From: Clostridiales bacterium
Lineage (GTDB): Bacteria > Bacillota > Desulfotomaculia > Desulfotomaculales > VENG01
Assembly: GCA_021736985.1 (NCBI GenBank)
Contig: JAIPEW010000005.1
Span: 26,413-90,412, forward strand
Direction: 5' to 3'
DNA length: 64,000 bases
Within the stretch, counting starts at the first letter, position 1; every line of letters starts with the position of its first letter. Both the position numbers and the translations under genes were made by a program. The notes under the pieces were generated by a model that did not search any database, was not told where the DNA came from, and saw only the letters and a list, made by a program, of their open reading frames with translations. Positions 9,325 through 33,672 of the stretch are shown piece by piece.

Positions 9325-9343
9325 TTTTTGCAGCGGCGTTACT

Positions 9344-10252: not shown

Positions 10253-10439
10253 ATTTTTAGCAATTGCAAAAATTATATTATTTACTCCAGGTAATAATAT
10301 GTAATTATTCTGTTAATTTTAGGTTTTTCAACAATGTTGAATTTTGTAAACTTACAATAGTATTGCTTATGTTATAATAAAAGTGTTTTCTATATTAATT
10401 TTAATCAAATTAGTACTGTTATTGCTAGGGGTTTTAAAA

Positions 10440-15833: not shown

Positions 15834-16586
15834 ATGAGTGATTATAAGTTTATAGAAATGTATTTAGATAAAAATTCTAACGGTAGGCCTGGAGTTAAAA
15901 TTAAACCTAAGGCCCTGGTAATTCATTGGACTGCTAATACTGACGTGGGAGCGGATGCAAAGGCAAATAGAAATTACTTTAATAATTCCGGTGATTATGC
16001 AAGTACTCATTATATTGTAGATGATCAAGTTGTAATACAATGTTTGCCGGAAGATGAAATGGGTTTTCACGTTGGTTCAAGCTACTACAAACCTGATGCA
16101 CTGAAGTTATTAAGCAATTATCCCAATGACTGTACAATTGGTATAGAAATGTGTGTGAATAAAGATGGGGATTTTCAAAAAACCTATCAAAATACTGCGG
16201 CTTTAAGTACGGAAATAGTAAACCGGTACAATTGGAACCAGGAGAATCTCTGGCGCCATTATGATATTACCGGCAAATATTGTCCCAGGTATTTTGTAAA
16301 CGATATTACAGCCCGGGAATATAATTTTTCATCTGCCAGCAAGGGGTGGGAAAGTTTTCAAGATGAAGTATTAAGAGTTTCAGAAGAAAATAACAGTAGC
16401 AAGGGACTATTTAAGGATTTACAGGGGTACTGGGCACAAGAAACAATAGAAAGAGCTTATAAACTGGGGCTGGTTTCTGGGGTAAGTGAAGATGAATTTG
16501 CACCGGATAAATTTTTAACGCGGGCTGAAGGCGTTGTTTTACTTATGCGATTATATGATGAAATTAAAGAAACCGGTATTACTTAG
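15834..16586 (+). CDS. N-acetylmuramoyl-L-alanine amidase (Amidase_2/PGRP) with a C-terminal SLH domain
   Basis: Amidase core (VIHWTAN, ASTHYIVD, CPRYF). The C-terminal FKDLQGYWAQETIERAYKLGLVSGVSEDEFAPDKFLTRAEG is an S-layer homology repeat. The track start is 15804. Confidence 0.8.
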   Translation: MSDYKFIEMYLDKNSNGRPGVKIKPKALVIHWTANTDVGADAKANRNYFNNSGDYASTHYIVDDQVVIQCLPEDEMGFHVGSSYYKPDALKLLSNYPNDCTIGIEMCVNKDGDFQKTYQNTAALSTEIVNRYNWNQENLWRHYDITGKYCPRYFVNDITAREYNFSSASKGWESFQDEVLRVSEENNSSKGLFKDLQGYWAQETIERAYKLGLVSGVSEDEFAPDKFLTRAEGVVLLMRLYDEIKETGIT

Positions 16587-20282: not shown

Positions 20283-20318
20283 GATGTTTAAAAATTTTAT
20301 CTCCCGGGGGTTAACTAA

Positions 20319-21875
20319 TTGAAAATAGGACAAAAAATATACTTTATCATATTTATAATCCTATTAATTACCTGCGTGTCTTATGGTGTTATGTATTTAC
20401 AAGTAGAAAGTTTAAAAGATAATATGAATGAGACGTTTAGTACTTCTAAAAAAAACATGGAAGTTATGAAGTTGCAATCTAATTACTGGACATCTATCGA
20501 TACTTTAAAAGATTTTTTAATCACAGCAGACGAACTAAAATATGATGCTTTCGGTGAAATTTCTTACAAGTCTATAACGCAGGAAGAAAAGTTAATTAAA
20601 CTAACTAAGAATAAGGAAGCCAGGGAACATTTAAAAAAATTGCAGTCGCTGCACATATCTTTTACTAAACTTGTTAACGAAAAAATGGTTCCACTGGTGA
20701 GAACGGGCGAAAGTGTAAAAGCCCTTAATTTGTATAGTAAGGAAATAAAACCCAAGGCCTTGCAATCTATGGAAGAATTAAAAACATATTTAGATCTGCA
20801 CAAGAAGGAAATGGAAAAAATTAATGATGTATCAGCCAAGAAGGCTAACCTGGTCAAAAACTTAACTATTATTATAGGGATAATTATTATTTTACTCGGG
20901 ATTCTCATAAGTGTGTCAGCATCAAGAGCTATTATCAGGCCGTTAAAGAGGTTATCAACAGAAGTTAAATTAGTAGCAGGAGGTGATTTAACCAAGAAAA
21001 TTAATTTGAAATCAAAAGATGAGCTAGGGGATCTCGCTGCGGCTTTTAATGAAATGATTGACAATTTCAAACAAATACTTGGAAGCATCAAGGATTATTC
21101 TTTGAATCTTTCAACCCAAAGTGAGGAAATGTTTTCTGCTACAGGACAGGTTAGTTCTAATATGAGTAAAATTACCAGTAATGCAAATGATGTAACTACA
21201 GCGGTACAACAAACATCTCAAAATGCCCAGGATGCAGCTGACAAATCGCAGGAGATGTACAGCAGTGCTGAATATGGTGGACAGGCAGTTGATGAAACAG
21301 TACAAAAGATAAGAGATATAGATACTGCTTCACATGATGTAGCTGACAAGCTTCATGAAATGGAAGATAAGCTGACTAAAGTAAATGAAATAACGGATAC
21401 AATTACAGGTATAGCTGAGCAAACAAATTTACTAGCTTTAAATGCAGCAGTAGAAGCAGCAAGAGCGGGAGAACATGGAAAAAGTTTTGCTGTCGTAGCA
21501 GATGAAGTACGCAGTTTAGCCGAGCAATCGGCAGAAGCAGTAAAAGGAGTAGAATCTATAATAACAGAAATACGGCAAGGCATGTTTGCCTTAAATAACA
21601 GTATGAAAGCAAGTACAGAAATAGTTAAGCAGGGTGTATCTACTGCAGAAGATGCTGGCAAAACAATTAACGATATTGTTTGCTTGATTAAGGAGAATGT
21701 TTCCTTAATATATGAAATATCACAAATGGCTCAGAAAAGCAGTTCTTCAATAGAAAATCTAGCGTCATCTTCAGAACACATTAATTCAACTATGCAGCAA
21801 GTTACTACTTTTTCAAAGGAACTTGCCCGGATGTCAGAGGAGTTAAGCAGGTTAACCACGCGCTTCAAGTTGTAG
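20319..21875 (+). CDS. methyl-accepting chemotaxis protein
   Basis: Two TM helices, a HAMP domain ([13 protein letters not shown]) and the conserved MCP hairpin [35 protein letters not shown]. Confidence 0.9.
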
Positions 21876-22004
21876 AACAAGTTGTTAAAATAATGTTTAA
21901 TTTTCCTTAACAAATTTTACTTTAGTTTCAATCTGCTTTTATAAATATTTGCTATATTCTAAGTCGAACAATTTTTTACTAAATTTTTATGAAGGAGAGA
22001 TAGC

Positions 22005-22895
22005 ATGTTCAGACCCTTGTCTAAGTTAGCATTAGTATTTGCTGTTGTGTTTTTGCTGGCAGGTTTAGTAGCCGGCTGCGGCGGTAACTCCGATTCCGGT
22101 CAAGAGCAAAGTGCTGATCAGAATGATGGTAAAGAAGAGTTAAGCGGTACATTACAGGTTAACGGTTCTACTACTGTAACCCCTGTTGCTCAAGCCTGGG
22201 CAGAAAAGTTTCATCAGAAGCATTCTGGCGTAGAAGTAGTTGTTAGTGGTACAGGTTCTGGTAATGGTATAGCAGCTCTTATCAACGGTACTACAGATAT
22301 TGCTATGGCATCCCGCAAAATGAAAGAAAAAGAAGAAGCTAAGTTTGATGGCACACCTAAGTGCCACGTAGTCGGTCGCGACGGAGTTGCTATTGTTGTA
22401 CATCCTGGTAATTCTGTAGAGTCTTTAACTATGGAAGAAGCAAAAGCTGTATTTACTGGTGAAGTTACTAACTGGAAGGAAGTTGGCGGAGCAGATCAAG
22501 AAATCACTGTTTACACCAGGGATACAAGCTCCGGTACTTACGGATTTGTTAAAGAAAAAGTATTAGAAGATGAAAATTTTGCTAAAGCTGCACGTAAAAC
22601 TGCATCCAACGCTTCCATGGCAAAAACTATAGCACAAGAAGAATCCTCCATTGGCTATTGCGGTCTTGCATTTGTTGATGACAGCCTCAAAGCTGTTAGT
22701 ATCAGCGCAGATGGTGCCGATCCTGTTAAGCCCAGCTTTGAAACTGCAGCGTCCGGAGACTACCCCGTTGTGCGTGACTTAAACATGTATACTATCGGTG
22801 AAGCTGAAGGTTTAGCAAAAGCATTCTTTGATTACGGATTCAGTGAAGAAGGTCAGGCAATAGTTAAAGAAATTGGTTACCTGCCTGTTAAGTAA
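22005..22895 (+). CDS. pstS: phosphate ABC transporter substrate-binding lipoprotein PstS
   Basis: Lipobox LAGLVAGCGG, with GSTTV and SGTGSG motifs. Confidence 0.85.
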   Translation: MFRPLSKLALVFAVVFLLAGLVAGCGGNSDSGQEQSADQNDGKEELSGTLQVNGSTTVTPVAQAWAEKFHQKHSGVEVVVSGTGSGNGIAALINGTTDIAMASRKMKEKEEAKFDGTPKCHVVGRDGVAIVVHPGNSVESLTMEEAKAVFTGEVTNWKEVGGADQEITVYTRDTSSGTYGFVKEKVLEDENFAKAARKTASNASMAKTIAQEESSIGYCGLAFVDDSLKAVSISADGADPVKPSFETAASGDYPVVRDLNMYTIGEAEGLAKAFFDYGFSEEGQAIVKEIGYLPVK

Positions 22896-23357: not shown

Positions 23358-23555
23358 ATGTCTTTAGCTAAAAAGAAGTCAAATACAAGTAATAAAAATT
23401 CTAAGCCTCGGAAAGTTAATGCTAATAATAAGCAATCTTGCAGCTTATCTAATCAGTTTGAAAATCCTATTATTCATGTGGATATAAAACAGCAAAAAGT
23501 ATTAGTTAATAGATTATGTGAAGTATGGACTCATGAACGTATGGATATAATTTAA
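23358..23555 (+). CDS. small basic hypothetical protein (65 aa)
   Basis: AGAGGTG SD 6 nt upstream of the ATG, its own terminator at 23619-23645, and a Lys/Asn-rich N-terminus. No motif recognised. Confidence 0.5.
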   Translation: MSLAKKKSNTSNKNSKPRKVNANNKQSCSLSNQFENPIIHVDIKQQKVLVNRLCEVWTHERMDII

Positions 23556-23713: not shown

Positions 23714-24442
23714 TTATGCAGATTTGGTAATCCAATCACGATAGTCGTATAGAAAATCTGTTATTTTATTAGTGTAATAATTTTTAATCTCTATTTGTAT
23801 ATTATCCAGATATCCATTTAGGTATTTTAGTATATGAGTCTTGTGATACTTATTTAAGTTGTTGAAATAAAAGTTTTTACACAGCTTTTTCGATATTTCA
23901 GTTGTATCTAAAAGAAAATCAAAATAAAACGGCAAGCAGATATCCAAAACTACATCAATTGATTTGATACTTAAGTAGTTTAAAAAGCGATTTTTATTTT
24001 CAGCTTTATAAATAATGCTTATTTCATCATGTGATGGAAATACATGTACTAGCTGTGCGCTTCCTTGTAAGTTTAAAATTTCTTTTATCTGATTATAGTT
24101 TAAAAAGCTTATATTTTTGCTTATTGAGGAAGTTATTTTGTAATGCAATTCATTTAATTTTTTTGAAGACAACAGTTCTTTTATTACTTCATAATTATTT
24201 ATATTTTTTTTATTAAATATTTTTTCTAATACATAATTTAATTCTTTTTTTTGAATTTTAAAAAAGTTATCTACTTCGTTGCTAATAATGTTATGGCAAT
24301 TTTCTACTGTTCTATGTGTAGCTTCATCCAGCAAAAATTGGCTAAGACTATTACTAGTTAATATAGAAAGAAATAAATTGTATTTAATATTAGTGTTTAG
24401 CATATTAGTTAGTGTGTCGGGCAAAAAATTTCCTCCTAACAT
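23714..24442 (-). CDS. hypothetical protein (242 aa, N/K/I/Y-rich)
   Basis: A long ORF in extremely AT-rich DNA with its own terminator. No motif recognised. Confidence 0.5.
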   Translation of the reverse strand: MLGGNFLPDTLTNMLNTNIKYNLFLSILTSNSLSQFLLDEATHRTVENCHNIISNEVDNFFKIQKKELNYVLEKIFNKKNINNYEVIKELLSSKKLNELHYKITSSISKNISFLNYNQIKEILNLQGSAQLVHVFPSHDEISIIYKAENKNRFLNYLSIKSIDVVLDICLPFYFDFLLDTTEISKKLCKNFYFNNLNKYHKTHILKYLNGYLDNIQIEIKNYYTNKITDFLYDYRDWITKSA

Positions 24443-24599: not shown

Positions 24600-25226
24600 A
24601 TGATAAGAAGCCGATACAGGTATAATAATGTAGATAATCAAGCTTTGGAGAATGTACAAAAAGATATGTCTCGTGATATTGATGAATATAGTAAGATTCG
24701 TAAAGAAAGAAAAGGATGGCTTAAACAAAGGTCAGAAAAGCGACAGTATGTAAAGGATAGAAATGAACGATATAAACAAACAGAAAATTTACGTAATGAT
24801 GTGAAGCGAGAGCTGCGTGCTGTAGGTAATATAGAAAAACGAATAGGCAGGATTCGTTCCCCAGAAGTACAGGAAGTAGTTTATGATATTTTAAATCAGG
24901 CCAGGGAACGTGGGATGTCAGTAGATGAAGTTTTGCAAGCACTTCCTGACGGGGGAATAAAAGGACGTGTATCACCTGCGTCAAGAAGCAGTTTGTATTG
25001 GATTTTGGGGTCTTTATTATTATCTGCCCTGATATTTCCGTCAGCAAATCAAAATATGCGCAATTTTGCCGGGAAAGTTGCAGATGGAGCTTCTGATCTA
25101 TCTGATAAGCTGCAAGCTTTTGTAGAAGAAACCAGGGAAGGCCTGGAGGATATAATTGCAGAAGCTCATTTTAACAGGCTTAAAAAATCAATGGACAGTG
25201 GGGATGAAGGGGAACCACAGGCATAA
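24600..25226 (+). CDS. hypothetical protein: basic coiled-coil N-half, one TM helix, amphipathic acidic tail; paralogue of 30207-30569
   Basis: The C-half LYWILGSLLLSALIFP..LQAFVEETREGLEDIIAEAHF parallels GYLAAGTLIGAGIPFI..KLFEETREELQAIKAEAAE in the gene on the other side of the ATPase. Confidence 0.6.
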   Translation: MIRSRYRYNNVDNQALENVQKDMSRDIDEYSKIRKERKGWLKQRSEKRQYVKDRNERYKQTENLRNDVKRELRAVGNIEKRIGRIRSPEVQEVVYDILNQARERGMSVDEVLQALPDGGIKGRVSPASRSSLYWILGSLLLSALIFPSANQNMRNFAGKVADGASDLSDKLQAFVEETREGLEDIIAEAHFNRLKKSMDSGDEGEPQA

Positions 25227-25249
25227 AATAATTACAGGAGGATATTAGT

Positions 25250-25480
25250 ATGGCAGATATGGAAAGTATAAATAACAAGTTAGATCAAGCTTCACAACTG
25301 TTAAATGAAGCAGTGGATTTAAGCACAGAATTAAGAAAAGAAGGCCCCGGAAACAGTAAAGAAGTTTCTGCTGCATGGGAAAATTTTTTAAATAATTTTT
25401 TTTCATATATAAAAACAAAAAGTAAGGAAAGCGGCCAGAATTTAATGGCCGGTATATCCTGGAGAAAAATAAAACCATAA
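25250..25480 (+). CDS. hypothetical small protein (76 aa)
   Basis: AGGAGG 8 nt upstream of the ATG and a terminator immediately after. No motif recognised. Confidence 0.55.
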   Translation: MADMESINNKLDQASQLLNEAVDLSTELRKEGPGNSKEVSAAWENFLNNFFSYIKTKSKESGQNLMAGISWRKIKP

Positions 25481-25511
25481 AAAACAGCCTTTTATAAAAG
25501 GCTATTTTTTA
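25480..25511. terminator. bidirectional terminator shared by the 76-aa gene and the ATPase
   Basis: aaaaacagccttttataaaaggctatttttt. Confidence 0.75.
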
Positions 25512-28500
25512 TTTGTTTAGTATATCAAGTCCCTGGCTCATTATAGAACTGACAAAAACAACGCCCCATTGTGAGGGATCAAGTGAGCATGTCCCAAAAA
25601 TTCTTTGCCCGGCAGGTAAATGAATTGCTGAAAAGAGCAAACCTGCAGAAGATGCTACTGCACTTCCTACATATAAGTTTGATGATGTTTTGTTATCCTT
25701 ATTTTTGCGGCAATCAAGTACATGTAAAAGCTGACTTAGGGTAATTGAACTCAGCGTCATGCTGCGTGCAGTGGAAAGATTGTACCGGTTTAATCCCCAC
25801 ATGTATGCTCCGATTCCTGTAATTCCAATAGTAAGACCGCGGCTTATTATCTGGTTTCTTGTCTTTTTGTCTATAAAAGCTTCATCTTTATCCCTTGGTG
25901 GCTGTTTTATCAGGTCAGGAGGGAATTTGTCTATAGACAATGCTAAAGCAGGTAATCCATCTCCTAACATATTCAGCCACAGCAGTTGAATAGGAAGCAG
26001 TGGAAGCGGTAGGCCTCCTGCTACGGCAGTAAACATCAGGATAATTTCACCAACATTAGTAGCAAGAAGGTAGCGTATAGATTTCTTAATATTTTCATAA
26101 ATTCCACGTCCTTGTTCTACGGCAGTTACAGCTGTACCAAAATAATCATCTGTAATAATTATTTGTGCAGCTTGTTTTGTAACATCTGTACCGCTTTTAC
26201 CCATGGCAATTCCTATGTCTGCTTCTTTAACTGCTGGAGCATCATTTATTCCGTCGCCTATCATGCCAACAATATGCCCCTGTTGTTTAAAAGTATTTAT
26301 AATTAATACTTTTTGATTCGGATAAAGTCTTGCAAATACTCTTACTTTGTGAATAACATTTATTAAATCATTTTCATCCATTTCATCTATTTCTTTGCCT
26401 GTTAGCACTTCATTCGAACTATTTACCAGGCCTAATTCGCTTCCAATTGCAAATGCGGTTTGTTTATGATCTCCGGTAATCATGGCTACTCCTATTCCTG
26501 CCTGTTTACACTTGTTTAAGGCATGAGTAACTTCGGGCCTTGGAGGATCGGTCATACCTATCAGGCCTAGAAAGACTTGTTCTGTTTCTTCATTCTTTTC
26601 CACGTTATTTTCAAAGGCTTCCGGAAGTATTTTATATGCTACTCCGAGTACGCGCATGCCGCGTGTAGTCATGTAGTTGTTTGCTTCAACGATGGACTGG
26701 TAGTATTCATTGTCCAGTAAATTTTTATTGTTTTCAGCTCGATAGTGAGTACAGTTTTCTAATATAACTTCAGGAGCCCCTTTTGTAAAAGCTATATACT
26801 GGTTTTTAGGCCCCCTGCATATCTGCGTCATTTTGCATTTCTCAGAATCAAAAGGAATCTCTCTAACAGGCATGTATTCTTCATTCAAGTTATTTAAATT
26901 AATCCCTGCACGACCGGCTGCAGTAAGTATTGCACCTTCTGTTGGATCTCCTTTTACTTCCCATTCGTTATCGTTTTTAACAATTTTAGACGTACAGCAT
27001 TGTGCTGCAGCACAAAGGGTAAAGTATATATTATCCTGGTTGTGTATATCTTGACCGTTTGCAGGTTTAATAAAGCCATTTTCAGGGTTATATCCATCTC
27101 CTTCAATACTCCACCATTCATTTTGTCCACAGTAAACAAGTTTTATAGTCTGCTGATTTTGAGTCAGGGTACCCGTTTTATCAGTACAGATCATTGTAGC
27201 ACATCCCAGCGTCTCTACTGCCGGCAGTTTTCGTACAATTGTATTTGCTGAAGCCATTTTGTGTACGCCGGAAGCAAGGGCAAGAGTTACAATAGCCGGC
27301 AGTCCCTCGGGGATTGCAGCGACCGCTAGGCTTACCCCTGTTATAAGCATTTGCAGCAGTGATCCTCCGCGCATTAGTCCTGCAATAACAACAATGCCGC
27401 TAACAACGGTAGAACCCTTTAATATGGTTTTCCCAAGGTCTGCTAATCTTTTTTGCAGTGGGGTCGTTTCATTATCATTATTATTTAACATTTGTGCTAT
27501 ATGTCCGAGTTCTGTGTCCATACCCGTGCCAACTACAATTCCTTTTCCATGTCCCTTGGTAATTATGGTTCCCATAAAGGTAAGGTTATGGCAGTCCAAT
27601 AAATACATGCAGTTGTTTTCTGTAGAAATTTTCTTGGGTACGGGATAAGATTCCCCTGTTAAGGCAGATTCTTCTACTTCCAGTGCGTTTGATTCTATTA
27701 ACCTGGTGTCAGCAGGTACAATATTACCCTGTTCGATTATTATTATATCACCGGGTACTAATTCTACCGCGGGAATAGATTGTTCTCTGCCATCACGGAT
27801 TACAGCAGCAGTAGATGTTGTCATTTTCTTTAATGCAGATAAGGATCCTTCTGCCTTGTGTTCTTGTACAGCACTTAAGACGGCATTAATAATTACAATT
27901 GATATAATAGCCAGAGCATCACCTTTCTCGCCTAACAGCAGACACACAACGCTGGAGCCGACAAGTACATATATAAGGAAGTCTTTTAGCTGTGCTAATA
28001 CTCTACTAAAAAAACTTGGAGGGGGGGGTTCAGCTAACATGTTTTTGCCGTATAAAGTCAGGCGTGAATTCACTTCTTGTAGATCTAGTCCTGTTGAACC
28101 ACTGCTGTTTAATATATCTATTACTTTTTCCCTGGACATCATGGCCCATGGTTTCGTGTAAATACTTTCATCATTAGTATTATCAGAGGCAGCTGCATAT
28201 TGTTTTACGGCCAGGTTGTCGTAATACTTATGTGTATTATTGCTCAATTTCTTTAATAATTTTAAAGAATGTACTGTGATTAATATACTTGTAACATTAT
28301 TAAATAATCCAGCCCCTAAGGGGGAGATAAGGCTTGAGGCAGCCAGCGCCAGACCAAAGGAATTAAAACCGCCTGAAAGTGCAAAACTCTGGCGGGTTGT
28401 TTCCCCCACGTGAAAAGAGACTTTAAAGGCTGTTGGTAGATTTTTAATACCATTATCTACAATAATATCTGTTTTAGAATTGAGTTTAGATAATGTTTTT

Positions 28501-30140
28501 TCAGTTTTTAGCAGGATGTTCACATCAGTTATATTGGACAAATTTGTTATATCATCAAGGTTATTTGCAATTAGACCTACATAATTGTTGTTTTTATGTA
28601 ATAATGACATTTCATCCAGCATTTCTTCGTTTGATTTTACTGTATGCAAACCTAGTTCTTTTGCAATTATGCTAGTACTTTCATTATTATCTTTGTTCAT
28701 AACGTAGATAGATTTAATTCCCCGGGTTCTGATATTGTATATTGTTTCTTTTGCTTGATTAGATACAGAAGATTTAATACCAATTAAACCTATAAGTTCA
28801 CCTTCCTGATAGATATAGTAAGGACACTGGTAATGATGCTTTAATCTTTCTGCCTTGTAAAAGTTAAAATCGCATAAATCTATTTTAGAAGATATATACC
28901 TGTAGTCTCCTATCAATACTTCTTTGGAATATATTTCACCGCATATGCCGCTGCTGGTAATATCTTTAACAGTGACATGTTCCAGGTTTTGCACCTGTAT
29001 ACTGGAGGAAAATGCTTCATTAAGTGCATGTCCTGCTTTTTTAAAGAGTGAAGCAGCAATAGTTAAAACATCTTCTTCAGTATATCCTTGCAGAGGTATT
29101 ATTTTACCGATCTCGAGACCTGGGTCAAACATTTCTTGCTCTGTAAAAATTAATGTATCCACGTGCTCCAACACTTCCAGGGACTTTCTGTTATGTACTA
29201 AAATACCGTGTTTTGCTGCAAGGGCCATGCCTGAAGATATGGATGAGGAACGATAGAGTTGAAGTGGTCCTGGAGATGCAGCAATAAGCATTGCTAAACT
29301 TTTTTCAAAATTACGTGCTGCTAAACCAGCAAGACCGGCAAGTCCAAAATATACTGGCGTGATCTTTTGTGCATAATTTTCTGCTTCTTTCTCAAGTGGG
29401 GAAGCTGCAATTCTTCTATTTTTAGAATTAAATGTACTTATAGGTTTAGAACTAAATTTTACATTTTCAATTGTGTTGTCAGCATATTCTTCTGCAATAT
29501 CGCGCGTCTGTTTTACTAGTATAGATTGAAGTAAAGATCCCAGGTTAGAAAGCCAGATCACCAGCAGACCGGAAATATTCTCCCGCAGCAGTATAGTAAT
29601 CAAACTTGTTATACTAATAATTAGGTCATGATTAATTTGCTTTTTTCTGGTTAGAGCAGTAATCCCGCTGCGAATTATAGGATAGCCTGAAATTAATGTA
29701 GTTGCATTGGCTATGTAGGATAAGCTTGTAGACCGCGACAAAGATGAAGGTCCTGCGATCAAACGCTTTACAGTAAAACCAGCAAGTATAGTGCCGCCCA
29801 GAGTTACATTAAATAATTCTCGCCTTATTGGCAAATCTCCATATTCTTTCTCTACATGTTCTTTTTCGTTTTTAGAAACTGCTGTATCATTAGTAGATAG
29901 GCATAGATAATTTATTTCATTGATAATCAGATCATAGCTAATTAGATCCTTATTATAATGAATAAGCATACGACCTGAATTTATACTTCCTTTAACATCA
30001 GTTATACCATTCAAGCTAGATAGTTTATTTATTAAATGTGATAATAAGACTATATTTTTATTTAGACCTGGTATTTTAATACGTATTCTTTCAGGCAAAT
30101 TATGAACTACTTCTGGTGATGTGTTGTGTATTGCTTTCAT
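25509..30140 (-). CDS. tandem P-type ATPase (1,543 aa): degenerate P1B-like N-module fused to an intact P2A (Ca2+/cation-type) pump
   Basis: N-module (aa 1-~660): an HMA-like start VHNLPERIRIKIPGL without CxxC, AASPGP in place of the CPC helix, VDTLIFTEQEMF in place of DKTGT, and LIANNLDDITNL in place of GDGxND. C-module: TGES, ICTDKTGTLTQN, KGAPE, DPPR, MITGDH, GDGINDAPAVK and IPEGLP. Confidence 0.85.
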   Translation of the reverse strand: MKAIHNTSPEVVHNLPERIRIKIPGLNKNIVLLSHLINKLSSLNGITDVKGSINSGRMLIHYNKDLISYDLIINEINYLCLSTNDTAVSKNEKEHVEKEYGDLPIRRELFNVTLGGTILAGFTVKRLIAGPSSLSRSTSLSYIANATTLISGYPIIRSGITALTRKKQINHDLIISITSLITILLRENISGLLVIWLSNLGSLLQSILVKQTRDIAEEYADNTIENVKFSSKPISTFNSKNRRIAASPLEKEAENYAQKITPVYFGLAGLAGLAARNFEKSLAMLIAASPGPLQLYRSSSISSGMALAAKHGILVHNRKSLEVLEHVDTLIFTEQEMFDPGLEIGKIIPLQGYTEEDVLTIAASLFKKAGHALNEAFSSSIQVQNLEHVTVKDITSSGICGEIYSKEVLIGDYRYISSKIDLCDFNFYKAERLKHHYQCPYYIYQEGELIGLIGIKSSVSNQAKETIYNIRTRGIKSIYVMNKDNNESTSIIAKELGLHTVKSNEEMLDEMSLLHKNNNYVGLIANNLDDITNLSNITDVNILLKTEKTLSKLNSKTDIIVDNGIKNLPTAFKVSFHVGETTRQSFALSGGFNSFGLALAASSLISPLGAGLFNNVTSILITVHSLKLLKKLSNNTHKYYDNLAVKQYAAASDNTNDESIYTKPWAMMSREKVIDILNSSGSTGLDLQEVNSRLTLYGKNMLAEPPPPSFFSRVLAQLKDFLIYVLVGSSVVCLLLGEKGDALAIISIVIINAVLSAVQEHKAEGSLSALKKMTTSTAAVIRDGREQSIPAVELVPGDIIIIEQGNIVPADTRLIESNALEVEESALTGESYPVPKKISTENNCMYLLDCHNLTFMGTIITKGHGKGIVVGTGMDTELGHIAQMLNNNDNETTPLQKRLADLGKTILKGSTVVSGIVVIAGLMRGGSLLQMLITGVSLAVAAIPEGLPAIVTLALASGVHKMASANTIVRKLPAVETLGCATMICTDKTGTLTQNQQTIKLVYCGQNEWWSIEGDGYNPENGFIKPANGQDIHNQDNIYFTLCAAAQCCTSKIVKNDNEWEVKGDPTEGAILTAAGRAGINLNNLNEEYMPVREIPFDSEKCKMTQICRGPKNQYIAFTKGAPEVILENCTHYRAENNKNLLDNEYYQSIVEANNYMTTRGMRVLGVAYKILPEAFENNVEKNEETEQVFLGLIGMTDPPRPEVTHALNKCKQAGIGVAMITGDHKQTAFAIGSELGLVNSSNEVLTGKEIDEMDENDLINVIHKVRVFARLYPNQKVLIINTFKQQGHIVGMIGDGINDAPAVKEADIGIAMGKSGTDVTKQAAQIIITDDYFGTAVTAVEQGRGIYENIKKSIRYLLATNVGEIILMFTAVAGGLPLPLLPIQLLWLNMLGDGLPALALSIDKFPPDLIKQPPRDKDEAFIDKKTRNQIISRGLTIGITGIGAYMWGLNRYNLSTARSMTLSSITLSQLLHVLDCRKNKDNKTSSNLYVGSAVASSAGLLFSAIHLPAGQRIFGTCSLDPSQWGVVFVSSIMSQGLDILNK

Positions 30141-30166
30141 CTATCGTCCTCCAATAATTTTAATTT

Positions 30167-30213
30167 AAAAAAAACTTATAACTTAAGCTGTTTAATGCAG
30201 CTTAAGTTATGAG
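30167..30213 (-). terminator. strong intrinsic terminator between the small membrane-protein gene and the ATPase start
   Basis: Minus strand: ctcataacttaagctg-cattaaa-cagcttaagttataag followed by U8. It is a 16-bp stem with one G-U pair. The upstream TAA stop (30207-30209) lies in the 5' arm. The ATPase ATG is 27 nt after the U-run. Confidence 0.75.
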
Positions 30214-30569
30214 TTTTTTTCTTCAGCAGCTTCTGCCTTGATTGCTTGCAATTCTTCCCTGGTTTCTTCAAACAGTTTAGCCAGCTCTTTTTTTGTTTGT
30301 TCTAATTCATCCTCAACATTTGTTCCTGCGTAATTTCTTTTATCAAATTCAAATGTTTCCGGTCTATTTTCCTGTTTGGACCTTATCTCTTGTACTAAAT
30401 TGTTCCAACCTTCGGACATCTGTTTTCCAGTAGATCTGACCTTTTCGTTAACAGTTAGAGTACCTTCTGCTGTTAATAAAGCAAGTCCCCGAACCCTTCT
30501 TTTGATAAATGGGATTCCAGCACCAATTAAAGTGCCTGCTGCCAGATATCCCAGTGGATATGGATTCAT
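30207..30569 (-). CDS. small membrane protein (120 aa; glycine-zipper TM helix plus amphipathic/acidic tail, YtxH-like architecture)
   Basis: The internal ATG at 30569 (MNPYPLGYLAAGTLIGAGIPFI) has AGAGGTG 6 nt upstream; the track start is 30614. It is a paralogue of the C-half of 24600-25226. Confidence 0.65.
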   Translation of the reverse strand: MNPYPLGYLAAGTLIGAGIPFIKRRVRGLALLTAEGTLTVNEKVRSTGKQMSEGWNNLVQEIRSKQENRPETFEFDKRNYAGTNVEDELEQTKKELAKLFEETREELQAIKAEAAEEKNS

Positions 30570-30862
30570 GTAAACACCTCTTTTTTTAATTTTACATATA
30601 AATAATTTTGTCATTTATCTTTTTTTATTATACAGGAAAGATATTTAAAAGTTGTAAAAATTTATATGTAAACAGGGTTATATAATATATAAATTATAAA
30701 AATTACTTGTAATAAAATAATAAAGTTATTAAAATATCTAATAGAAACATTAACAAAATGTTAGGTGGATTTTTTACTATAGGATTGTGAAAGTTCAAAC
30801 ATATGTTAAATACTCATACAGATAAGCTCCGGCTTTTTACTGTATTAAAGGGGGAAGTTGTT

Positions 30863-31213: not shown

Positions 31214-31747
31214 TTAAAGCATATTTTGCAGTTGTTTACGAGATATCCATACTTCTGTAAGTTCTCTATGTATTCTAGTGCGCGCAAAGGGTAAGGCATA
31301 AGTTCTTGCCAGTAGATATTCCCATGATGCTATAAAAGAGTTAACGGGATTTCGGGGAAGTTTTCTAACATGAAATCCCAATCTTTTTGCTCCTGCACTT
31401 GCTACAGTAATACTATAAATACCAGTAACTGGTGTTAATTCTGTATTTTCTTCAATCTCTTTTGCCAGTAGATACAGTTCATTTTTCAGTACGTGAAGCA
31501 TGCTCCATTCAGTGGATTTTTTATGTTCTGAAATATGTTTTAATTTTAAATTAGCTAAATGTATTTCTCCCACTTTGCTGCCAGGCATAATTTCCGTTCC
31601 ATCCGGCAGAGTAAAAGGCTTACCCCGGTATTTGTGATAGCCAACAAGGATTATTCCGCAGGCATCGGAATGTACGGGATGGGTGCGTTTGATAAAAGAA
31701 AAAAATTTTTCCCACGGAAGTAATATAAGTGCTGCCCATCTATTCAA
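31214..31747 (-). CDS. conserved hypothetical protein, possibly YkoP-like, translationally coupled to the deacetylase
   Basis: 4-bp ATGA-type overlap with the upstream gene. The family assignment is from memory of B. subtilis ykoN-ykoP context only. Confidence 0.4.
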   Translation of the reverse strand: MNRWAALILLPWEKFFSFIKRTHPVHSDACGIILVGYHKYRGKPFTLPDGTEIMPGSKVGEIHLANLKLKHISEHKKSTEWSMLHVLKNELYLLAKEIEENTELTPVTGIYSITVASAGAKRLGFHVRKLPRNPVNSFIASWEYLLARTYALPFARTRIHRELTEVWISRKQLQNML

Positions 31748-32451
31748 TATTTTTCCTCCTCAAATAACCCGTCTAGTGTAACTAATTCCCACCCGTTTAT
31801 TTTACAAAAATCTAATATTATAGGTAGAGCTTGAAGCATAGTTTGTGTAGAGCCCCGGGCATAGTTATGATCGTGTAATAGTACTATAATTCCAGGTTTT
31901 AAATTTTTACATATTCTTTTTACGATGTATTGGGAAGTTATATTGTGTATCCAATCCTTGCCGGCAATAGACCATAGAACTGTCTTTTGACCGAAACGAC
32001 CGGGCCAAAAAACGGTTCCCATATTAAAACATCCCCAGGGCGGCCTGTACCACCTGGGTGTGTCTCCCGTAATAGCTTTTAATGTTTTCTTGCATTTTTT
32101 CAAGTCTAATGCTACACCCCAGGGTGTAACTAACCAGGGATGACGGTGTTTCCAAGTATGTATGCCAATAGTGTGACCGGCGTTATAAGCTTGCTGCACT
32201 AAATCTGGGTACTTTTGGGCTGATTTTCCTACCACAAAAAAAGTTGCTTTTGCCTTGTAGTCTGTCAGAATGTTTAAAAGGTGTGGGGTAAAGTAAGGAT
32301 CGGGACCGTCGTCAAAAGTTAAAGCTACAGCAGGTTTATCGGGCCCGCGGCGTATAATAGAAGGAGACTGCTTGTGTGCAAAAAAACTAGCTCCAGCAGT
32401 ATATATCATGTATGCAAATGTTAAGTTTAAGAAGTTAGACAATATTATCAC
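31744..32451 (-). CDS. polysaccharide deacetylase (NodB homology domain)
   Basis: LTFDDGPDP, HTWKH and RPPWG motifs. Confidence 0.85.
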   Translation of the reverse strand: MIILSNFLNLTFAYMIYTAGASFFAHKQSPSIIRRGPDKPAVALTFDDGPDPYFTPHLLNILTDYKAKATFFVVGKSAQKYPDLVQQAYNAGHTIGIHTWKHRHPWLVTPWGVALDLKKCKKTLKAITGDTPRWYRPPWGCFNMGTVFWPGRFGQKTVLWSIAGKDWIHNITSQYIVKRICKNLKPGIIVLLHDHNYARGSTQTMLQALPIILDFCKINGWELVTLDGLFEEEKY

Positions 32452-32484
32452 CTATCATAGCTGACAACTAATATCTGAAAAATA

Positions 32485-33672
32485 TTAAGTTGTCTGGGCT
32501 ATATGGTATTCTTCTTCATCAGATTTTTTTTTAGCATCGGCCATTTCTAATACTAGATTAACTGTGTCATTTACAGCGTTAGGTTTAGAATGCAATAGGG
32601 CCGCATCACTCATTTTTTTTAATGATGCAGGAGTTTTATATAAGTATTGGACAGTATTAACCAGGTCTTTTGTATTTTTAAAAGATTTTCCTGCACCAAT
32701 ATTGATTAAGAAGTTCGTATTTCCCTCTTCTTGTCCTGGAATAGGACGGTAAACTAATAGAGGTAAACCCTTGGATAGTGCTTCGTAAACAGTAATACCT
32801 CCAGCTTTGGAAATTAAAAGGTTGGAAACTTGCATTAAGTCTGCAATTTTTTCGGTAAAGCCTAATACATGCATCTTATTTCTAAACCGGTACTTAAGGT
32901 TTTGCATGCGTTTTAAAAGCATTCGATTGTGTCCGCAAACAATTATTATTTGTATATCTTCCGGCAAATTTCCAAGGAGCTGGCAAATCTTGGATTCTTT
33001 ACCCAGCATACCGTAAGCGCCGCCCATCAAGAGTACAGTAAATTTGTTAGATAAACCAAAATTTTGTCTTATTTGCTCGCAACTGCAGTTTTTACTAAAG
33101 CTTGGCCTGAGGGGGATGCCTAGTGGGTGAATACAAGATGTAGGAATATTCCTATCAATCAACTTATTAATTGAATACTTATCAGGTATGATATAAATGT
33201 CAGTATGGGGATGAATCCACTGCGAGTGGATTATAACATCTGTAATAATAGTTATTACTTTAGGTACGTCCTTACCTCTTTCGCTTAAAGCAGATAATAC
33301 CCCGGCAGGGGTAGGAAATGTACAAATAATAATACAAGGTTTAATGTCTTGTATAAGTTTTGCAAGACGTTCATGTCCCAGGTTGTCTAACCAGTGCTGC
33401 ACCGGGGAATCAGGTTTTATTGAACCAGTTAGTTTAAAAAATACCCGGTAAGCGTTAGGGAAATAACGAACTATTTTTATAAAACTTTTTTTAGTAACGT
33501 GATTAACGCGCGGTGCCAGAAAGTTAAAAAAGTCTTTTATTTCTACGCTTAAATCAGTTCTGTATGCATTAATGATGTCTTTAACAGCGTGGGCAACAAG
33601 GTTATGCCCGGCTCCGTAATTAGCGGATAATATAAGAATATCATAATGCGATTGAGTCCTCAATAGAAACAC
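32485..33672 (-). CDS. MGDG-synthase-family glycosyltransferase (UgtP/YkoN-like diacylglycerol glycosyltransferase, GT28)
   Basis: N-terminal ILSANYGAGHNLVAHAV and a C-terminal GT-B motif SKAGGITVYEALSKGLPLLVYRPIPGQEEGN. Confidence 0.8.
   Translation of the reverse strand: MFLLRTQSHYDILILSANYGAGHNLVAHAVKDIINAYRTDLSVEIKDFFNFLAPRVNHVTKKSFIKIVRYFPNAYRVFFKLTGSIKPDSPVQHWLDNLGHERLAKLIQDIKPCIIICTFPTPAGVLSALSERGKDVPKVITIITDVIIHSQWIHPHTDIYIIPDKYSINKLIDRNIPTSCIHPLGIPLRPSFSKNCSCEQIRQNFGLSNKFTVLLMGGAYGMLGKESKICQLLGNLPEDIQIIIVCGHNRMLLKRMQNLKYRFRNKMHVLGFTEKIADLMQVSNLLISKAGGITVYEALSKGLPLLVYRPIPGQEEGNTNFLINIGAGKSFKNTKDLVNTVQYLYKTPASLKKMSDAALLHSKPNAVNDTVNLVLEMADAKKKSDEEEYHIAQTT

Follow-up and report, generated by a model that had tools for sequence, protein, structure and literature searches.

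Gene content and organisation of the locus

The window (the whole stretch of 64,000 nucleotides analysed here) contains, on its reverse strand, a gene for a 1543-aa tandem P-type ATPase (25509-30140), accompanied by small genes whose positions were all confirmed as placed in the first-pass annotation. On one side of the pump gene lie two forward-strand genes. The first, pA (24600-25226, 208 aa), encodes a protein with a long basic N-terminal helix, an EncFtn-like two-helix region (24768-24938, forward strand; residues about 57-113, read as helix, S/D-P turn, helix), a hydrophobic segment and an acidic helix; it is followed by pC (25250-25480, 76 aa), which encodes an orphan protein, soluble and helical, and has an AGGAGG ribosome-binding site upstream. 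On the other side lies pB (30207-30569, reverse strand, 120 aa), a DUF5132-type protein. Its start was set at the ATG at 30569, which is preceded by GAGG and agrees with the annotation of the metagenome-assembled genome (MAG); a 135-aa version reaching 30614 was rejected, as the ribosome-binding site there is poor.

Two further genes lie beyond pA: p242 (23714-24442, reverse strand, 242 aa; soluble and helical), divergent from pA, and p65 (23358-23555, forward strand), a 65-aa ORF and possible additional member of the cluster. A PstS-like gene at 22005-22895 is unconserved across the loci described below.

Terminator-like hairpins were found on both sides of the pump gene. One (25486-25503) carries T-runs on both strands and lies where the pA-pC unit and the ATPase gene converge, while the other (30178-30210, reverse strand; a 13-bp stem followed by a T-run) separates pB from the ATPase start, so that transcription of pB and of the pump may be separated or attenuated. 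Considering this hairpin together with the convergent orientation of pA-pC, co-transcription of the small genes with the pump is not expected here.

Paralogy and family affiliation of pA and pB

The hydrophobic and acidic segments that had been quoted for the two proteins were recovered in both. In pA the hydrophobic segment LYWILGSLLLSALIFP (residues 132-147) is short and closed by an invariant proline, after which follows one acidic helix unit of DUF5132 type that includes the motif AFVEETREGLEDIIAEA (residues 173-189, nt about 25116-25166). In pB the Gly-rich hydrophobic segment, which is framed by the invariant P5 and P20, has a conserved GxxxG and had been quoted as GYLAAGTLIGAGIPFI (residues 7-22), is followed by the basic stretch KRRVRG and by two amphipathic acidic helix units, with the acidic motif LFEETREELQAIKAEA at residues 99-114 (nt about 30228-30275). 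An AF2 model built with the pB family alignment placed helices at residues 6-17, 20-67 and 85-119, and a single-sequence AF2 model of pA was all-helical.

Pairwise, the similarity of pA and pB is only moderate: BLASTP gave 17/37 identities (E = 1e-4 for a single comparison), and the Smith-Waterman score of 60 was attained in 7 of 5000 global and 19 of 5000 local-window shuffles. The family-level comparison was decisive. Aligning the pA family (A4, 10 sequences) with the pB family (A2, 36 small relatives from a full HMMER search), hhalign returned a probability of 96.4% and E = 1.1e-9 over 72 columns (A2 against pA alone: E 1e-4); cross-family BLASTP matches ranged from 2e-4 to 3e-3, and intermediate sequences matched both family HMMs. 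On the strength of these profiles pA and pB are true paralogs, in line with the first-pass annotation, although the likeness it had drawn from tail to tail needs a different register. The motif is present in both tails, but the best alignment (pA 122-195 with pB 1-68) sets hydrophobic segment against hydrophobic segment, and the EETRE tail of pB is copy 2 of its helix unit. The common module is a short hydrophobic segment of Gly and small residues that ends in an invariant proline, followed by a few basic residues and a long amphipathic helix of acidic character; in pA it occupies residues 132-195 (24993-25184, forward strand; helix …FVEETREGLEDIIAEAHFNRLK). R81, P88, P147, E180, D184, E188 and F191 are invariant in the pA family, and P5, G12, P20 and R27 near-invariant in that of pB.

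Judging from its relatives, pB belongs to the neighbourhood of DUF5132 and is linked more weakly to DUF1490 (PacL), DUF6110 and YtxH. The Pfam DUF5132 model was matched by 8/36 pB relatives and by 5/10 pA family members, and the syntenic pB orthologs in loci L004 and L007, at 25.3 and 25.8 bits, exceed its curated cut-off of 25 bits, while DUF1490 (5/36), DUF6110 (2/36) and YtxH (3/36) remained below threshold among the pB relatives. No Pfam threshold was reached by the window's own pA or pB, whose DUF5132 assignment is based on orthologs and profiles. For the N-terminal part of pA, 12 of the 14 matches of the A4 profile against the PDB were EncFtn-type, EncB/EncC or bacterioferritin chains (E 0.005-0.25); Pfam EncFtn-like was matched by 3/10 family members, and NCBIfam EncB_fam matched pA of the window with E 0.017. 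Inspection of the PDB profile alignment revealed that the ExxH ligands of EncFtn are unconserved in pA, where the aligned positions are A and R/Q.

The tandem ATPase

The N-terminal module of the pump (28245-30140, reverse strand; aa 1-632) begins with a CoBaHMA domain (Pfam HMA_2, 35.9 bits against a cut-off of 30; the two are equated in a preprint) and bears the His- and R-rich signature VVHNLPERIRIKIPGL. The P1B6-like half that follows is, as had been claimed, catalytically dead: FTEQE stands where DKTGT is expected, and TGE, the A-domain and GDGxND are all missing. Stand-alone versions of the module (634-635 aa) occur in P0003 and L007, and intact versions of the N-half in L016-L024. An active paralog in L008 carries CPC plus HNAST.

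By contrast with this dead half, the C-terminal half (25509-28191, reverse strand; about aa 650-1543) is an intact P2A-type Ca2+-ATPase, with DKTGT at residue 987, TGES at 828 and GDGIND at 1295, as well as (by inspection) PEGLP, N..E in TM5 and N...D in TM6. LMCA1, a Ca2+-ATPase of Listeria, is its best match in the PDB (8e-163), and NCBIfam models of the PMR1 and SERCA types match it.

Conservation of the gene neighbourhood

The co-occurrence of the small proteins with the ATPase, which the first-pass annotation had left as the point to be checked, was found to be strong in both directions. Starting from pB, 6/7 homolog contexts longer than about 2.3 kb contain a CoBaHMA ATPase or its N-module; starting from the ATPase, pA and pC adjoin the N-module in most metagenome loci with usable flanks, and pB-like genes lie beside most of these. 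Counted both ways, pA+pC occur in about 10 and pB likewise in about 10 of some 13 lineages, between which ATPase identity is below 60%. pA+pC and pB together beside an ATPase or stand-alone N-module were seen in the window, L004, L006 (Desulfotomaculum acetoxidans), L007, L008 (D. hydrothermale), the L016 and L019 groups, L026 and L029. Orthologs in the four individually compared loci L004, L006, L007 and L008 scored 7e-48, 3e-25, 1e-31 and 1e-24 for pA, 1e-17, 7e-21, 1e-16 and 2e-17 for pB (all syntenic), and 2e-25, 1e-21, 2e-14 and 2e-17 for pC. Exceptions exist: pA+pC are present in L012 and no pB was found within 10 kb upstream or 5 kb downstream (L012/L011), L015 has pB and neither pA nor pC, and L027 has pB alone, on a mere 3.2 kb.

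The 76-aa gene had rightly been counted in the unit: pC was found in 13 loci, always directly 3' of pA where both are present, and 11 residues are invariant in an 11-sequence alignment, although searches of Pfam and the PDB gave no relatives. To pA, pC, pB and the ATPase at least one gene has to be added, namely p242 as a fourth conserved accessory gene. Its homologs neighbour the cluster in L004 (205 aa, BLASTP 5e-7), L007 (246 aa, 4e-9) and L008 (230 aa, 4e-8), its family HMM matches ORFs at the operon head in L015, L016, L018 and L019, and it matched no Pfam family. The membership of p65 is uncertain, as it was seen in two loci only: it resembles (phmmer, E about 2e-6) a 65-aa ORF abutting the stand-alone N-module gene in L007, with NPII.VD...L.NRL.EVW in common.

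About ten lineages, deeply diverged from one another (30-57% ATPase identity between cluster lineages), carry pA, pB, pC and p242 beside an ATPase of one and the same lineage. Since L007 has all four together with a 635-aa dead N-module and no Ca2+ half, the association tracks the N-module and not the Ca2+ half. The bracketing of the pump holds for this genome, whereas order and strand vary from locus to locus elsewhere, which favours selection on proximity over an inherited operon structure.

Proposed role and alternative readings

We reason, with about as much confidence as doubt, that pA, pC, pB and p242 are a co-inherited accessory set, akin to PacL and Fez proteins, that docks on, stabilises or clusters the CoBaHMA tandem ATPase. 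We infer physical interaction, scaffold function and ion identity as follows. pA and pB would be placed in the membrane alongside the pump, and their acidic helices (in pA with the invariant E180, D184 and E188) would dock on its N-terminal module, made up of the basic CoBaHMA domain and the P1B6-like half; the latter, its catalysis lost in this genome, would be retained as a docking or regulatory scaffold. With pC and p242 acting as soluble partners, the assembly would stabilise the P2A half, which is of Ca2+(/Mn2+) type and still active, or concentrate it at a given site in the membrane. A single membrane span would put the acidic tail of pA on the other side of the membrane from its long basic N-terminus, so docking would require insertion as a hairpin or in monotopic fashion; for such an insertion there are no more than hints, from the 15-16-residue length of the hydrophobic segment and from a published DUF5132 model. 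Points that sit uneasily with the accessory-set reading are the terminator-like hairpin between pB and the ATPase, the convergence of pA-pC with the pump gene, the Pfam scores of the window's own pA and pB, which stay under every threshold, the sub-threshold DUF1490 and DUF6110 matches, the metal-binding motif missing from pB of the window, and the exceptions L012/L011, L015 and L027.

A possible, if rather doubtful, physiological role (compatible with the scaffold mechanism) is that the cluster serves a stage of sporulation, moving Ca2+ towards the forespore for Ca-dipicolinate while the small proteins direct the pump to the engulfing or forespore membrane or keep it there. The active half is of Ca2+-ATPase type, the named hosts D. 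acetoxidans and D. hydrothermale are endospore formers, and five loci with an intact tandem have a gene for the sporulation membrane protein YtaF at most about 1 kb from the cluster (TIGR02840: 161 bits in L015 against a cut-off of 149.6, about 136 bits in the other four). According to the literature, ytaF is sigma-E dependent, with a proposed role in Ca-DPA accumulation, and the P-type Ca2+-ATPase YloB is reported to matter for sporulation in Solibacillus. However, ytaF is not beside the cluster in the window, L004, L006, L007 or L008, the regions upstream of pA, pB and p242 gave no callable promoter for a sporulation sigma factor, the association follows the P1B-like module even where the Ca2+ half is missing (L007), and the related PacL, fez and ccyA-neighbourhood systems are non-sporulation systems.

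Less probable still is a lipid-bounded, ferrosome-like or iACC-like inclusion for mineral storage, loaded with divalent cations by the tandem pump, in which pA and pB, as short Gly-rich hairpin proteins, would give the membrane its shape or label it, with the EncFtn-like part of pA either turned towards the cargo or ordering a lattice. The parallels with fez clusters are several (a P-type ATPase with an N-terminal R-rich motif, at least one small protein with a hydrophobic region and GxxxG motif, a ferritin-like protein whose GxxxG anchor is C-terminal, and a second R-rich ATPase, of 728 aa in L008 and 1030 aa in L004), the pA profile matches almost exclusively EncFtn-family chains, and the Microcystis neighbourhood of ccyA, a marker of intracellular Ca-carbonate, comprises DUF5132 and CoBaHMA genes, two of each, along with a Ca2+ transporter. 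Set against these are the unconserved EncFtn ligands, the lack among the loci of a calcyanin-like GlyZip protein and of a carbonate or phosphate gene conserved in the cluster, and the N-module itself, where the transmembrane motifs that define FezB, D[YF]SCA and HNxxT, are absent and ASPGP and FNNVTS stand instead. Inclusions of such kind in Desulfotomaculum were not found in the literature searched, and we know of no report of them. Finally, it is highly improbable that pA and pB are generic YtxH-type stress proteins, or chance look-alikes with low-complexity acidic helices, that flank the ATPase by accident in this genome. Their pairwise similarity is indeed short and lies in E/A/K-rich helices (BLASTP E 1e-4, shuffle p about 0.001-0.004), YtxH and GvpT/GvpP matched weakly, and a word-indexed search returned only the proteins themselves and no other homolog; yet the profile-profile E of 1.1e-9 and the neighbourhood kept in about ten deep lineages already contradict this reading, and the invariant positions outside low complexity (P5, G12, P20 and R27 in pB; P147, E180, D184, E188 and F191 in pA) speak against it too, as does a YtxH score of 11 bits, well short of the 37.5 required.

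Comparison with known systems

The preferred reading, of an accessory set acting on the pump, has a counterpart in mycobacteria, where PacL proteins are encoded beside P1B ATPases with R-rich motifs, are needed for pump accumulation and cluster the pumps into membrane platforms; PacL1, on which the accumulation of CtpC depends, forms membrane foci. In broad terms PacL (DUF1490) and the DUF6110 proteins that resemble it, the latter encoded with P1B6 ATPases, are of the kind to which pB and pA's C-terminal third belong, and the active N-module paralog of L008 has the combination described as 'P1B6-like' for CtpC, the PacL1 partner. PacL1 differs in having a metal-binding motif, which is lacking in pB of the window. 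Microcystis has DUF5132 genes with CoBaHMA genes and a Ca2+/H+ exchanger as neighbours, and one of the two DUF5132 genes and the exchanger are co-expressed with ccyA. As related small proteins (DUF5132, DUF1490/PacL and DUF6110) had already been noted beside CoBaHMA proteins or P1B6-type ATPases, the label undescribed fits the module in part only; the likeness to ferrosome clusters, offered as speculation, has a real basis in the GxxxG segment of pB and in pA, whose weak EncFtn-like region and C-terminal hydrophobic anchor reproduce the layout reported for one fez-cluster protein.

Genes and DNA signals of the cluster

Combining the ORF map with the DNA itself, we placed the larger of the two small membrane proteins (pA, 208 aa) at 24600-25226 (+), followed by a 76-aa protein (pC) with its own AGGAGG ribosome-binding site at 25250-25480 (+), the 1543-aa tandem ATPase at 25509-30140 (-) and the smaller membrane protein (pB, 120 aa) at 30207-30569 (-); the source is a MAG that bears the label Clostridiales bacterium, in which the corresponding locus tags are K9L17_03935 to 03950. 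The likely start of pB is the ATG at 30569, which is preceded by GAGG, and the alternative 135-aa reading from 30614 is without a good ribosome-binding site. All the peptide segments quoted in the first-pass annotation were found in the window, about where it had put them.

Terminator-like hairpins were located at 25486-25503 (T-runs on both strands) and, on the minus strand, at 30210-30178, where a strong 13-bp hairpin followed by a T-run stands between pB and the ATPase start codon. Given the latter (30178-30210), pB may have a transcript of its own, or the pump may be subject to regulated read-through. Rfam returned no riboswitch (Mn2+ or other metal) near the cluster in the window and ten related loci, the promoter scan of the window (AT-rich DNA) performed no better than on shuffles, and the comparison of upstream regions across loci by inspection permitted no sigma-factor call. 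An ACATAA box, situated ~45 nt 5' of the start codon of the first pB-like gene, is common to the related loci with an intact tandem ATPase (L016, about 15915-15960; also L018, L021, L019 and L024) and could be a -10 element.

The upstream flank (18054-22895) encodes an EAL-CBS-GGDEF protein, a methyl-accepting chemotaxis protein (MCP) and a PstS-like binding protein, and the downstream flank (31214-33672) encodes YkoP, a polysaccharide deacetylase and an MGDG-synthase-like glycosyltransferase. Across loci, these flanking genes are not conserved beside the cluster, except for MCP-type genes in a few of them, which is probably a coincidence.

Paralogy and family placement of the small membrane proteins

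Word-indexed database searches with pB and pA recovered no homologs (self-matches only), while a full HMMER search with pB yielded 36 small proteins of 75-190 aa. Their N-terminal consensus reads M-R-W-L-R…S-P-x-G-L-L-A-A-G-x-x-x-G-x-A-G-x-P-x-x-K-K-x-L-R-G-L-A-V…W-x-x-L-V-x-E-A-R, and most of them carry a second copy of the helix unit.

The pairwise BLASTP match between pA and pB (17/37 identities, E = 1e-4 for a single comparison) is modest by itself, and their Smith-Waterman score of 60 was equalled in 7 of 5000 global and 19 of 5000 local shuffles. The pB-family profile aligns to pA 132-197 (E = 1e-4), and the family-to-family profile comparison (ten pA orthologs against the pB family) reached a probability of 96.4% and E = 1.1e-9 over 72 columns, laying pA 122-195 on pB 1-68. 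Furthermore, pB-like ORFs of other loci match both family HMMs, as exemplified by L016 15151-15672 (9e-17 to the pB HMM, 4e-12 to the pA C-terminus). Judged by this family-to-family match and by the ORFs recognized by both HMMs, the paralogy of pA and pB is real. The shared tail from which the first-pass annotation had argued stands as a similarity, but the tail-to-tail match pairs the single helix unit of pA with the second unit of pB, and the best register instead brings hydrophobic segment onto hydrophobic segment.

Among the 36 pB relatives, Pfam matches fell to DUF5132 (8/36 at E <= 0.1; best 1e-6), Apolipoprotein (7), DUF1490 (5; best 5.7e-5), YtxH (3) and, weakly, DUF6110 (2; E 0.0014). 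Two syntenic pB orthologs exceed the DUF5132 (PF17195) gathering score of 25 bits (L004 with 25.3 and L007 with 25.8 bits); window pB and pA gave no reportable match to this Pfam profile. As far as profile matches can tell, no Pfam family is closer to pB and to the C-terminus of pA than DUF5132. With the 36-sequence alignment as input, AF2 modelled pB (mean pLDDT 71) with helices at 6-17, 20-67 and 85-119, so that pB is predicted to have the DUF5132 layout, in which a hydrophobic helix at the N-terminus leads into a long soluble helix where the profile lies. The hydrophobic segment of pB spans only ~15 residues, with the invariant P5 and P20 on either side, and includes a GxxxG motif (AAG12TLIG16AG; family consensus AAGxxxGxAGxP) whose G12 is nearly invariant in this alignment and invariant in a further pB alignment.

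Short motifs rich in Cys (CCPSC, DHDCPC, CNCTDSNC) occur in several pB orthologs, either between the two helix units or after them (L016 15151-15672, L018 15218-15820, L019 9554-10129, L021 6766-7311 and L006 8001-8546), and are possible metal-binding motifs; window pB is without a His or Cys metal-binding motif.

The hydrophobic segment of pA (15-16 residues, ending in the invariant P147) is likewise rich in small residues, with G137 nearly invariant and an S138xxxS142 pattern. Its ten relatives matched DUF5132 (5/10 at E <= 0.1), YtxH (3/10) and EncFtn-like (3/10) in Pfam. When the pA profile was searched against the PDB, 12 of the 14 chains recovered were encapsulated ferritins, EncB/EncC or bacterioferritin; the matches to EncFtn-type chains were weak and family-specific, all falling on profile positions 56-118 (E 0.005-0.25). 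Although pA ~57-113 fits the two-helix EncFtn pattern (…ELxAV…, D/S-P turn, second helix), the ferroxidase ExxH is not conserved in pA (A and R/Q occupy its positions), and the helix-1 Glu is replaced by Lys in 4/10 members of the pA family (those of intact-tandem lineages). The middle region of pA is thereby short of EncFtn membership as defined by the Glu and ExxH ligands together with a significant profile match. It also differs from encapsulated ferritins in that pA has a membrane anchor, and the loci examined showed no gene for an encapsulin shell. The single-sequence structure model of pA was of low confidence (pLDDT 66), and its Foldseek comparison with the PDB gave meaningless long-helix matches only.

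The tandem ATPase

The ATPase opens with a Pfam HMA_2 domain (PF19991, residues 10-99, 35.9 bits against a cut-off of 30) and contains, from about residue 665, a complete P2-type ATPase. This C-half has the Listeria Ca2+-ATPase LMCA1 as its closest solved structure (8e-163), intact catalytic motifs (DKTGT at 987, TGES at 828, GDGIND at 1295) and, by inspection, the cation-site residues of TM4, TM5 and TM6 (IPEGLP, TNVGE and LNMLGDG). We classify it, on these motifs, as a P2A Ca2+-ATPase; since its score lies below the NCBIfam equivalog cut-offs, a specificity for Ca2+ or Ca2+/Mn2+ is presumed.

The N-terminal module (N-module, aa 1-632) resembles a P1B ATPase in which FTEQE replaces DKTGT, and TGE, the A-domain and GDGxND are gone, the same losses being found in five relatives. 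The Microcystis preprint equates Pfam HMA_2 with the CoBaHMA domain, which is marked by conserved basic residues and by a His that sits in an additional N-terminal strand. The N-module stretch VVHNLPERIRIKIPGL matches this signature, the residues concerned being, by inspection, VVH13NLPER18IR20IK22, alongside an HMA_2 score above cut-off. The R-rich N-terminal motif RxR(xR), which the ferrosome preprint describes as common to FezB, FezC, FezH and CtpC, is also present: this RxR/RxRxR motif (RIRIK) reads LPERIRIKIPGL in the window, its counterparts in orthologs being GRMRIR, GRVRLQ and GRIRIS.

At the P1B-6 motif places the window N-module has ASPGP (…IAASPGPLQ…) and FNNVTS, which rules it out as a P1B-6 ATPase. 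The active paralog of L008 (the Desulfotomaculum hydrothermale locus) has CPC at the TM4 position and HNAST in TM6, a combination of the kind named 'P1B6-like', as for CtpC, in the PacL paper. This paralog is an extra HMA_2-P1B ATPase of 728 aa (8466-10652, +). A different extra pump was observed in L004 (8825-11917, +), where HMA_2 is fused straight to a Ca2+-ATPase, with no P1B half, in a CoBaHMA protein of 1030 aa.

Across the related loci the tandem and its module occur in three states: ~1717 aa and intact in both halves (DKTGT and GDGxND twice each; L016-L024), ~1530 aa with a dead N-half that is without the A-domain (window, L004, L006, L008, L012 and L013), and a stand-alone dead module of 634-635 aa (L007 and a relative designated P0003).

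Conserved gene neighbourhood

We surveyed the neighbourhood in two directions. In the forward direction, the gene content of contigs encoding pB homologs was inspected. The Logan assembly locus L004/L005 encodes proteins of 205, 202 and 77 aa, a 1538-aa HMA_2-tandem ATPase and a 134-aa DUF5132-like protein; Desulfotomaculum acetoxidans (CP001720, L006) encodes proteins of 75, 220 and 181 aa and a 1523-aa tandem ATPase; a further Logan assembly (L007) encodes proteins of 76, 208, 171 and 246 aa, with a stand-alone 635-aa HMA_2 module 3 kb off; and D. hydrothermale (CAOS01, L008) encodes proteins of 77, 292, 124 and 230 aa, a 1528-aa tandem ATPase and the active 728-aa HMA_2-P1B ATPase. By BLASTP, orthologs in L004, L006, L007 and L008 were assigned to pA (7e-48, 3e-25, 1e-31 and 1e-24), pC (2e-25, 1e-21, 2e-14 and 2e-17) and pB (1e-17, 7e-21, 1e-16 and 2e-17), at a full-length ATPase identity of 40-46% among these loci. 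No relative of pC was found in Pfam or the PDB, and 11 of its residues are invariant in 11 sequences.

Upstream of pA lies p242, a 242-aa, AT-rich and orphan-looking ORF (23714-24442, -), yet kept beside the cluster in L004, L007 and L008 (BLASTP 5e-7, 4e-9 and 4e-8, respectively), with more distant relatives beside it in L015, L016, L018 and L019; it has no Pfam family match. A 65-aa ORF is also found near the cluster in both the window (23358-23555, +) and L007 (6549-6746), where it abuts the stand-alone N-module gene; the two copies match at E about 2e-6 and have a common C-terminal motif (NPII.VD…L.NRL.EVW).

For the reverse direction, six aligned N-modules served as the query of a metagenome scan; it provided 15 loci, all ORFs of which were surveyed by HMM. 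Where the contig reaches, L016-L019, L021, L022 and L024 have the order p242, pA, pC, ATPase on one strand and, where it extends, one or two pB-like genes downstream on the other strand. In L012, pA and pC come downstream of the ATPase; of the set, L015 has just the p242-like and pB-like genes; and in L013 and L023 the contig breaks off on the side that matters. Among the short contexts, L026 and L029 follow the same pattern and L027 (only 3.2 kb) has pB alone. The ATPases represent ~eleven lineages at <60% identity (from a matrix without L026 and L029); pA together with pC was found in about ten lineages, and so was pB.

The other searches contributed little: the word-indexed N-module search gave one stand-alone relative of 634 aa (P0003, on a 2.5-kb contig that holds no small genes) and otherwise mostly ordinary P1B ATPases, the window ATPase itself not being recovered, and the scan of species-representative genomes gave two Ignavibacteria P1B loci only, the source genome not being among its hits. 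As gene order and strand vary between the loci, proximity itself appears to be conserved. The co-occurrence of the small proteins with the ATPase in related genomes, on which the first-pass annotation had made its module depend, was thus borne out in ~ten lineages and from both search directions.

Two observations concern single loci. In D. acetoxidans (L006, 2663-6376), at a distance of 2-5 kb from the cluster, there are three small coiled-coil ORFs and a gene for a 976-aa protein that has two dynamin-like domains; none of these is conserved elsewhere among the loci. The contig of D. hydrothermale carries a partial 16S rRNA gene (L008, 1-1393, -) some 500 bp away from pC.

Interpretation and possible physiological roles

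Of the readings of these data, the best supported, in our view, has pA, pB, pC and p242 acting together as accessory proteins to the CoBaHMA/P1B6-like module of this pump lineage. It is the N-module that the association tracks, even in the locus devoid of the Ca2+ half (L007), which suggests that the dead N-half was kept here as a docking or regulatory scaffold; in such an arrangement the invariant acidic helices would dock on the basic CoBaHMA face. The series leading from two active halves, through a dead N-half, to a stand-alone dead module could reveal a role of CoBaHMA-P1B beyond transport.

To our knowledge, the route of Ca2+ to the forespore is still poorly defined, which makes the cluster a concrete candidate for it. 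Sporulation Ca2+ loading may be the physiological role: the named hosts are spore formers, and in five loci of the intact-tandem type a gene for a YtaF-type sporulation membrane protein (MntP superfamily) adjoins the cluster, within about 1 kb of it (L015 7275-7910, L016 6963-7619, L017 6558-7214, L018 6816-7463 and L021 5993-6619). The proposed role of YtaF is in Ca-DPA accumulation. In the window, however, no YtaF-type gene is adjacent to the cluster. The set may alternatively serve a ferrosome- or iACC-like storage compartment, for which the parallel in the parts lists speaks, though the motifs that define FezB are absent.

A wider proposal, which we hold to be unlikely, would credit spore-forming Firmicutes (e.g., Desulfotomaculum) with a so far unrecognised membrane system built around a pump and related by evolution to ferrosomes and PacL effluxosomes. 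Two DUF5132 paralogs of the short-hairpin kind, one tethering an EncFtn-like domain, would there organise a P1B6-like plus Ca2+ double ATPase and make with it a divalent-cation compartment or a forespore Ca2+-loading site. Were it true, the dead P1B half would be a pump domain turned docking scaffold. Because the cluster is present in the cultured and fully sequenced D. acetoxidans DSM 771, these ideas are directly testable.

Comparison with known systems

We know of few systems in which ion pumps are placed in membrane domains or organelles (PacL effluxosomes, ferrosomes and candidate intracellular Ca-carbonate genes). The cluster links PacL, ferrosome and Ca-carbonate systems by common parts (CoBaHMA/R-rich domain, small proteins with Gly-rich anchors, anchored ferritin-like protein) and, in spore-forming anaerobes, brings a pump of the Ca2+ type into the theme. 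A literature search (with the CoBaHMA family paper outside its reach) found no description of the present cluster.

Generic amphipathic families resemble the small proteins in layout. Both YtxH (PF12732) and GvpT/GvpP have an N-terminal hydrophobic helix followed by apolipoprotein-like amphipathic helices, and gave weak profile matches. They were rejected on score, YtxH with 11.1 bits for pA (E 0.55), 22.2 bits for the best family member and no match for pB (cut-off 37.5), and GvpT/GvpP with 19 bits against a cut-off of 80. The conserved place beside the ATPase is also unlike that of a generic stress protein such as YtxH.

The accessory set would be analogous to PacL-type partners, with which it probably has distant homology. 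PacL1 (Rv3269; family DUF1490, PF07371, gathering score 28.4 bits) is encoded with the P1B ATPase CtpC, is needed for CtpC accumulation and zinc resistance, and forms membrane foci with the pump; DUF6110 proteins, encoded with P1B-6 ATPases, have been called PacL-like. PacL proteins are small and have the general build of pB (one N-terminal hydrophobic segment, then a Glu/Ala-rich cytoplasmic helix), several paralogs per genome can occur in both cases, and the Cys-rich motif of some pB orthologs recalls PacL's optional metal-binding motif. In the window and in about ten lineages pB adjoins, as PacL does, an R-rich ATPase of P1B6-like lineage. The DUF1490 gathering score was nevertheless not reached (14.4 bits for the L019 pB, no match for the window proteins). 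DUF1490 is reported to be exclusive to Actinobacteria, whereas the hosts here include Firmicutes. Window pB is without PacL's optional C-terminal His-rich metal-binding motif, it is partnered with a tandem (P1B-P2A) pump that has a dead P1B half, and three more conserved proteins are present (pA, pC and p242), none of which is reported in PacL systems.

With ferrosomes (FezA/FezB/FezC/FezH) and DUF6110/P1B-6 pairs the cluster shares an ATPase with an N-terminal RxRxR-type motif. The fez likeness extends to small protein(s) with a hydrophobic region and GxxxG (Gxxx[A/S]), which pB fits by motif alone, a ferritin-like protein bearing a hydrophobic anchor at its C-terminus (here pA), extra R-rich ATPases in the same locus, and clusters found in anaerobes. 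It differs in that the FezB transmembrane motifs D[Y/F]SCA and HNxxT are absent from the window N-module and in having as its active half a pump of the Ca2+-ATPase type instead of an iron-type P1B-6 one; neither FeoA nor Fur nor DtxR was seen in the context of the cluster.

The third parallel is with Microcystis aeruginosa PCC 7806, in which the iACC marker ccyA (calcyanin) lies near two genes each for DUF5132 and CoBaHMA proteins, besides a Ca2+/H+ exchanger, and is co-expressed with one DUF5132 gene, the exchanger and a CoBaHMA-DUF454 gene. Two DUF5132 paralogs in one locus, with CoBaHMA proteins and a Ca2+ transporter as neighbours, thus recur here, and the published Microcystis DUF5132 model (N-terminal hydrophobic helix, hairpin-like second helix, then a long soluble helix) can be likened to the one that AF2 gave for pB. 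In contrast to Microcystis, the present cluster belongs to another phylum and has no calcyanin, its CoBaHMA is fused to a P-type ATPase (a DUF454 hairpin there) and its Ca2+ transporter is a P2A ATPase (a CAX exchanger there); the Microcystis link itself consists of co-location and co-expression. The membrane/metal module that the first-pass annotation had put forward as possibly undescribed is best retained in a wider form, of at least five genes, and loses part of its novelty: the cluster is a variant of the PacL/Fez/DUF5132-CoBaHMA theme and not something wholly undescribed.
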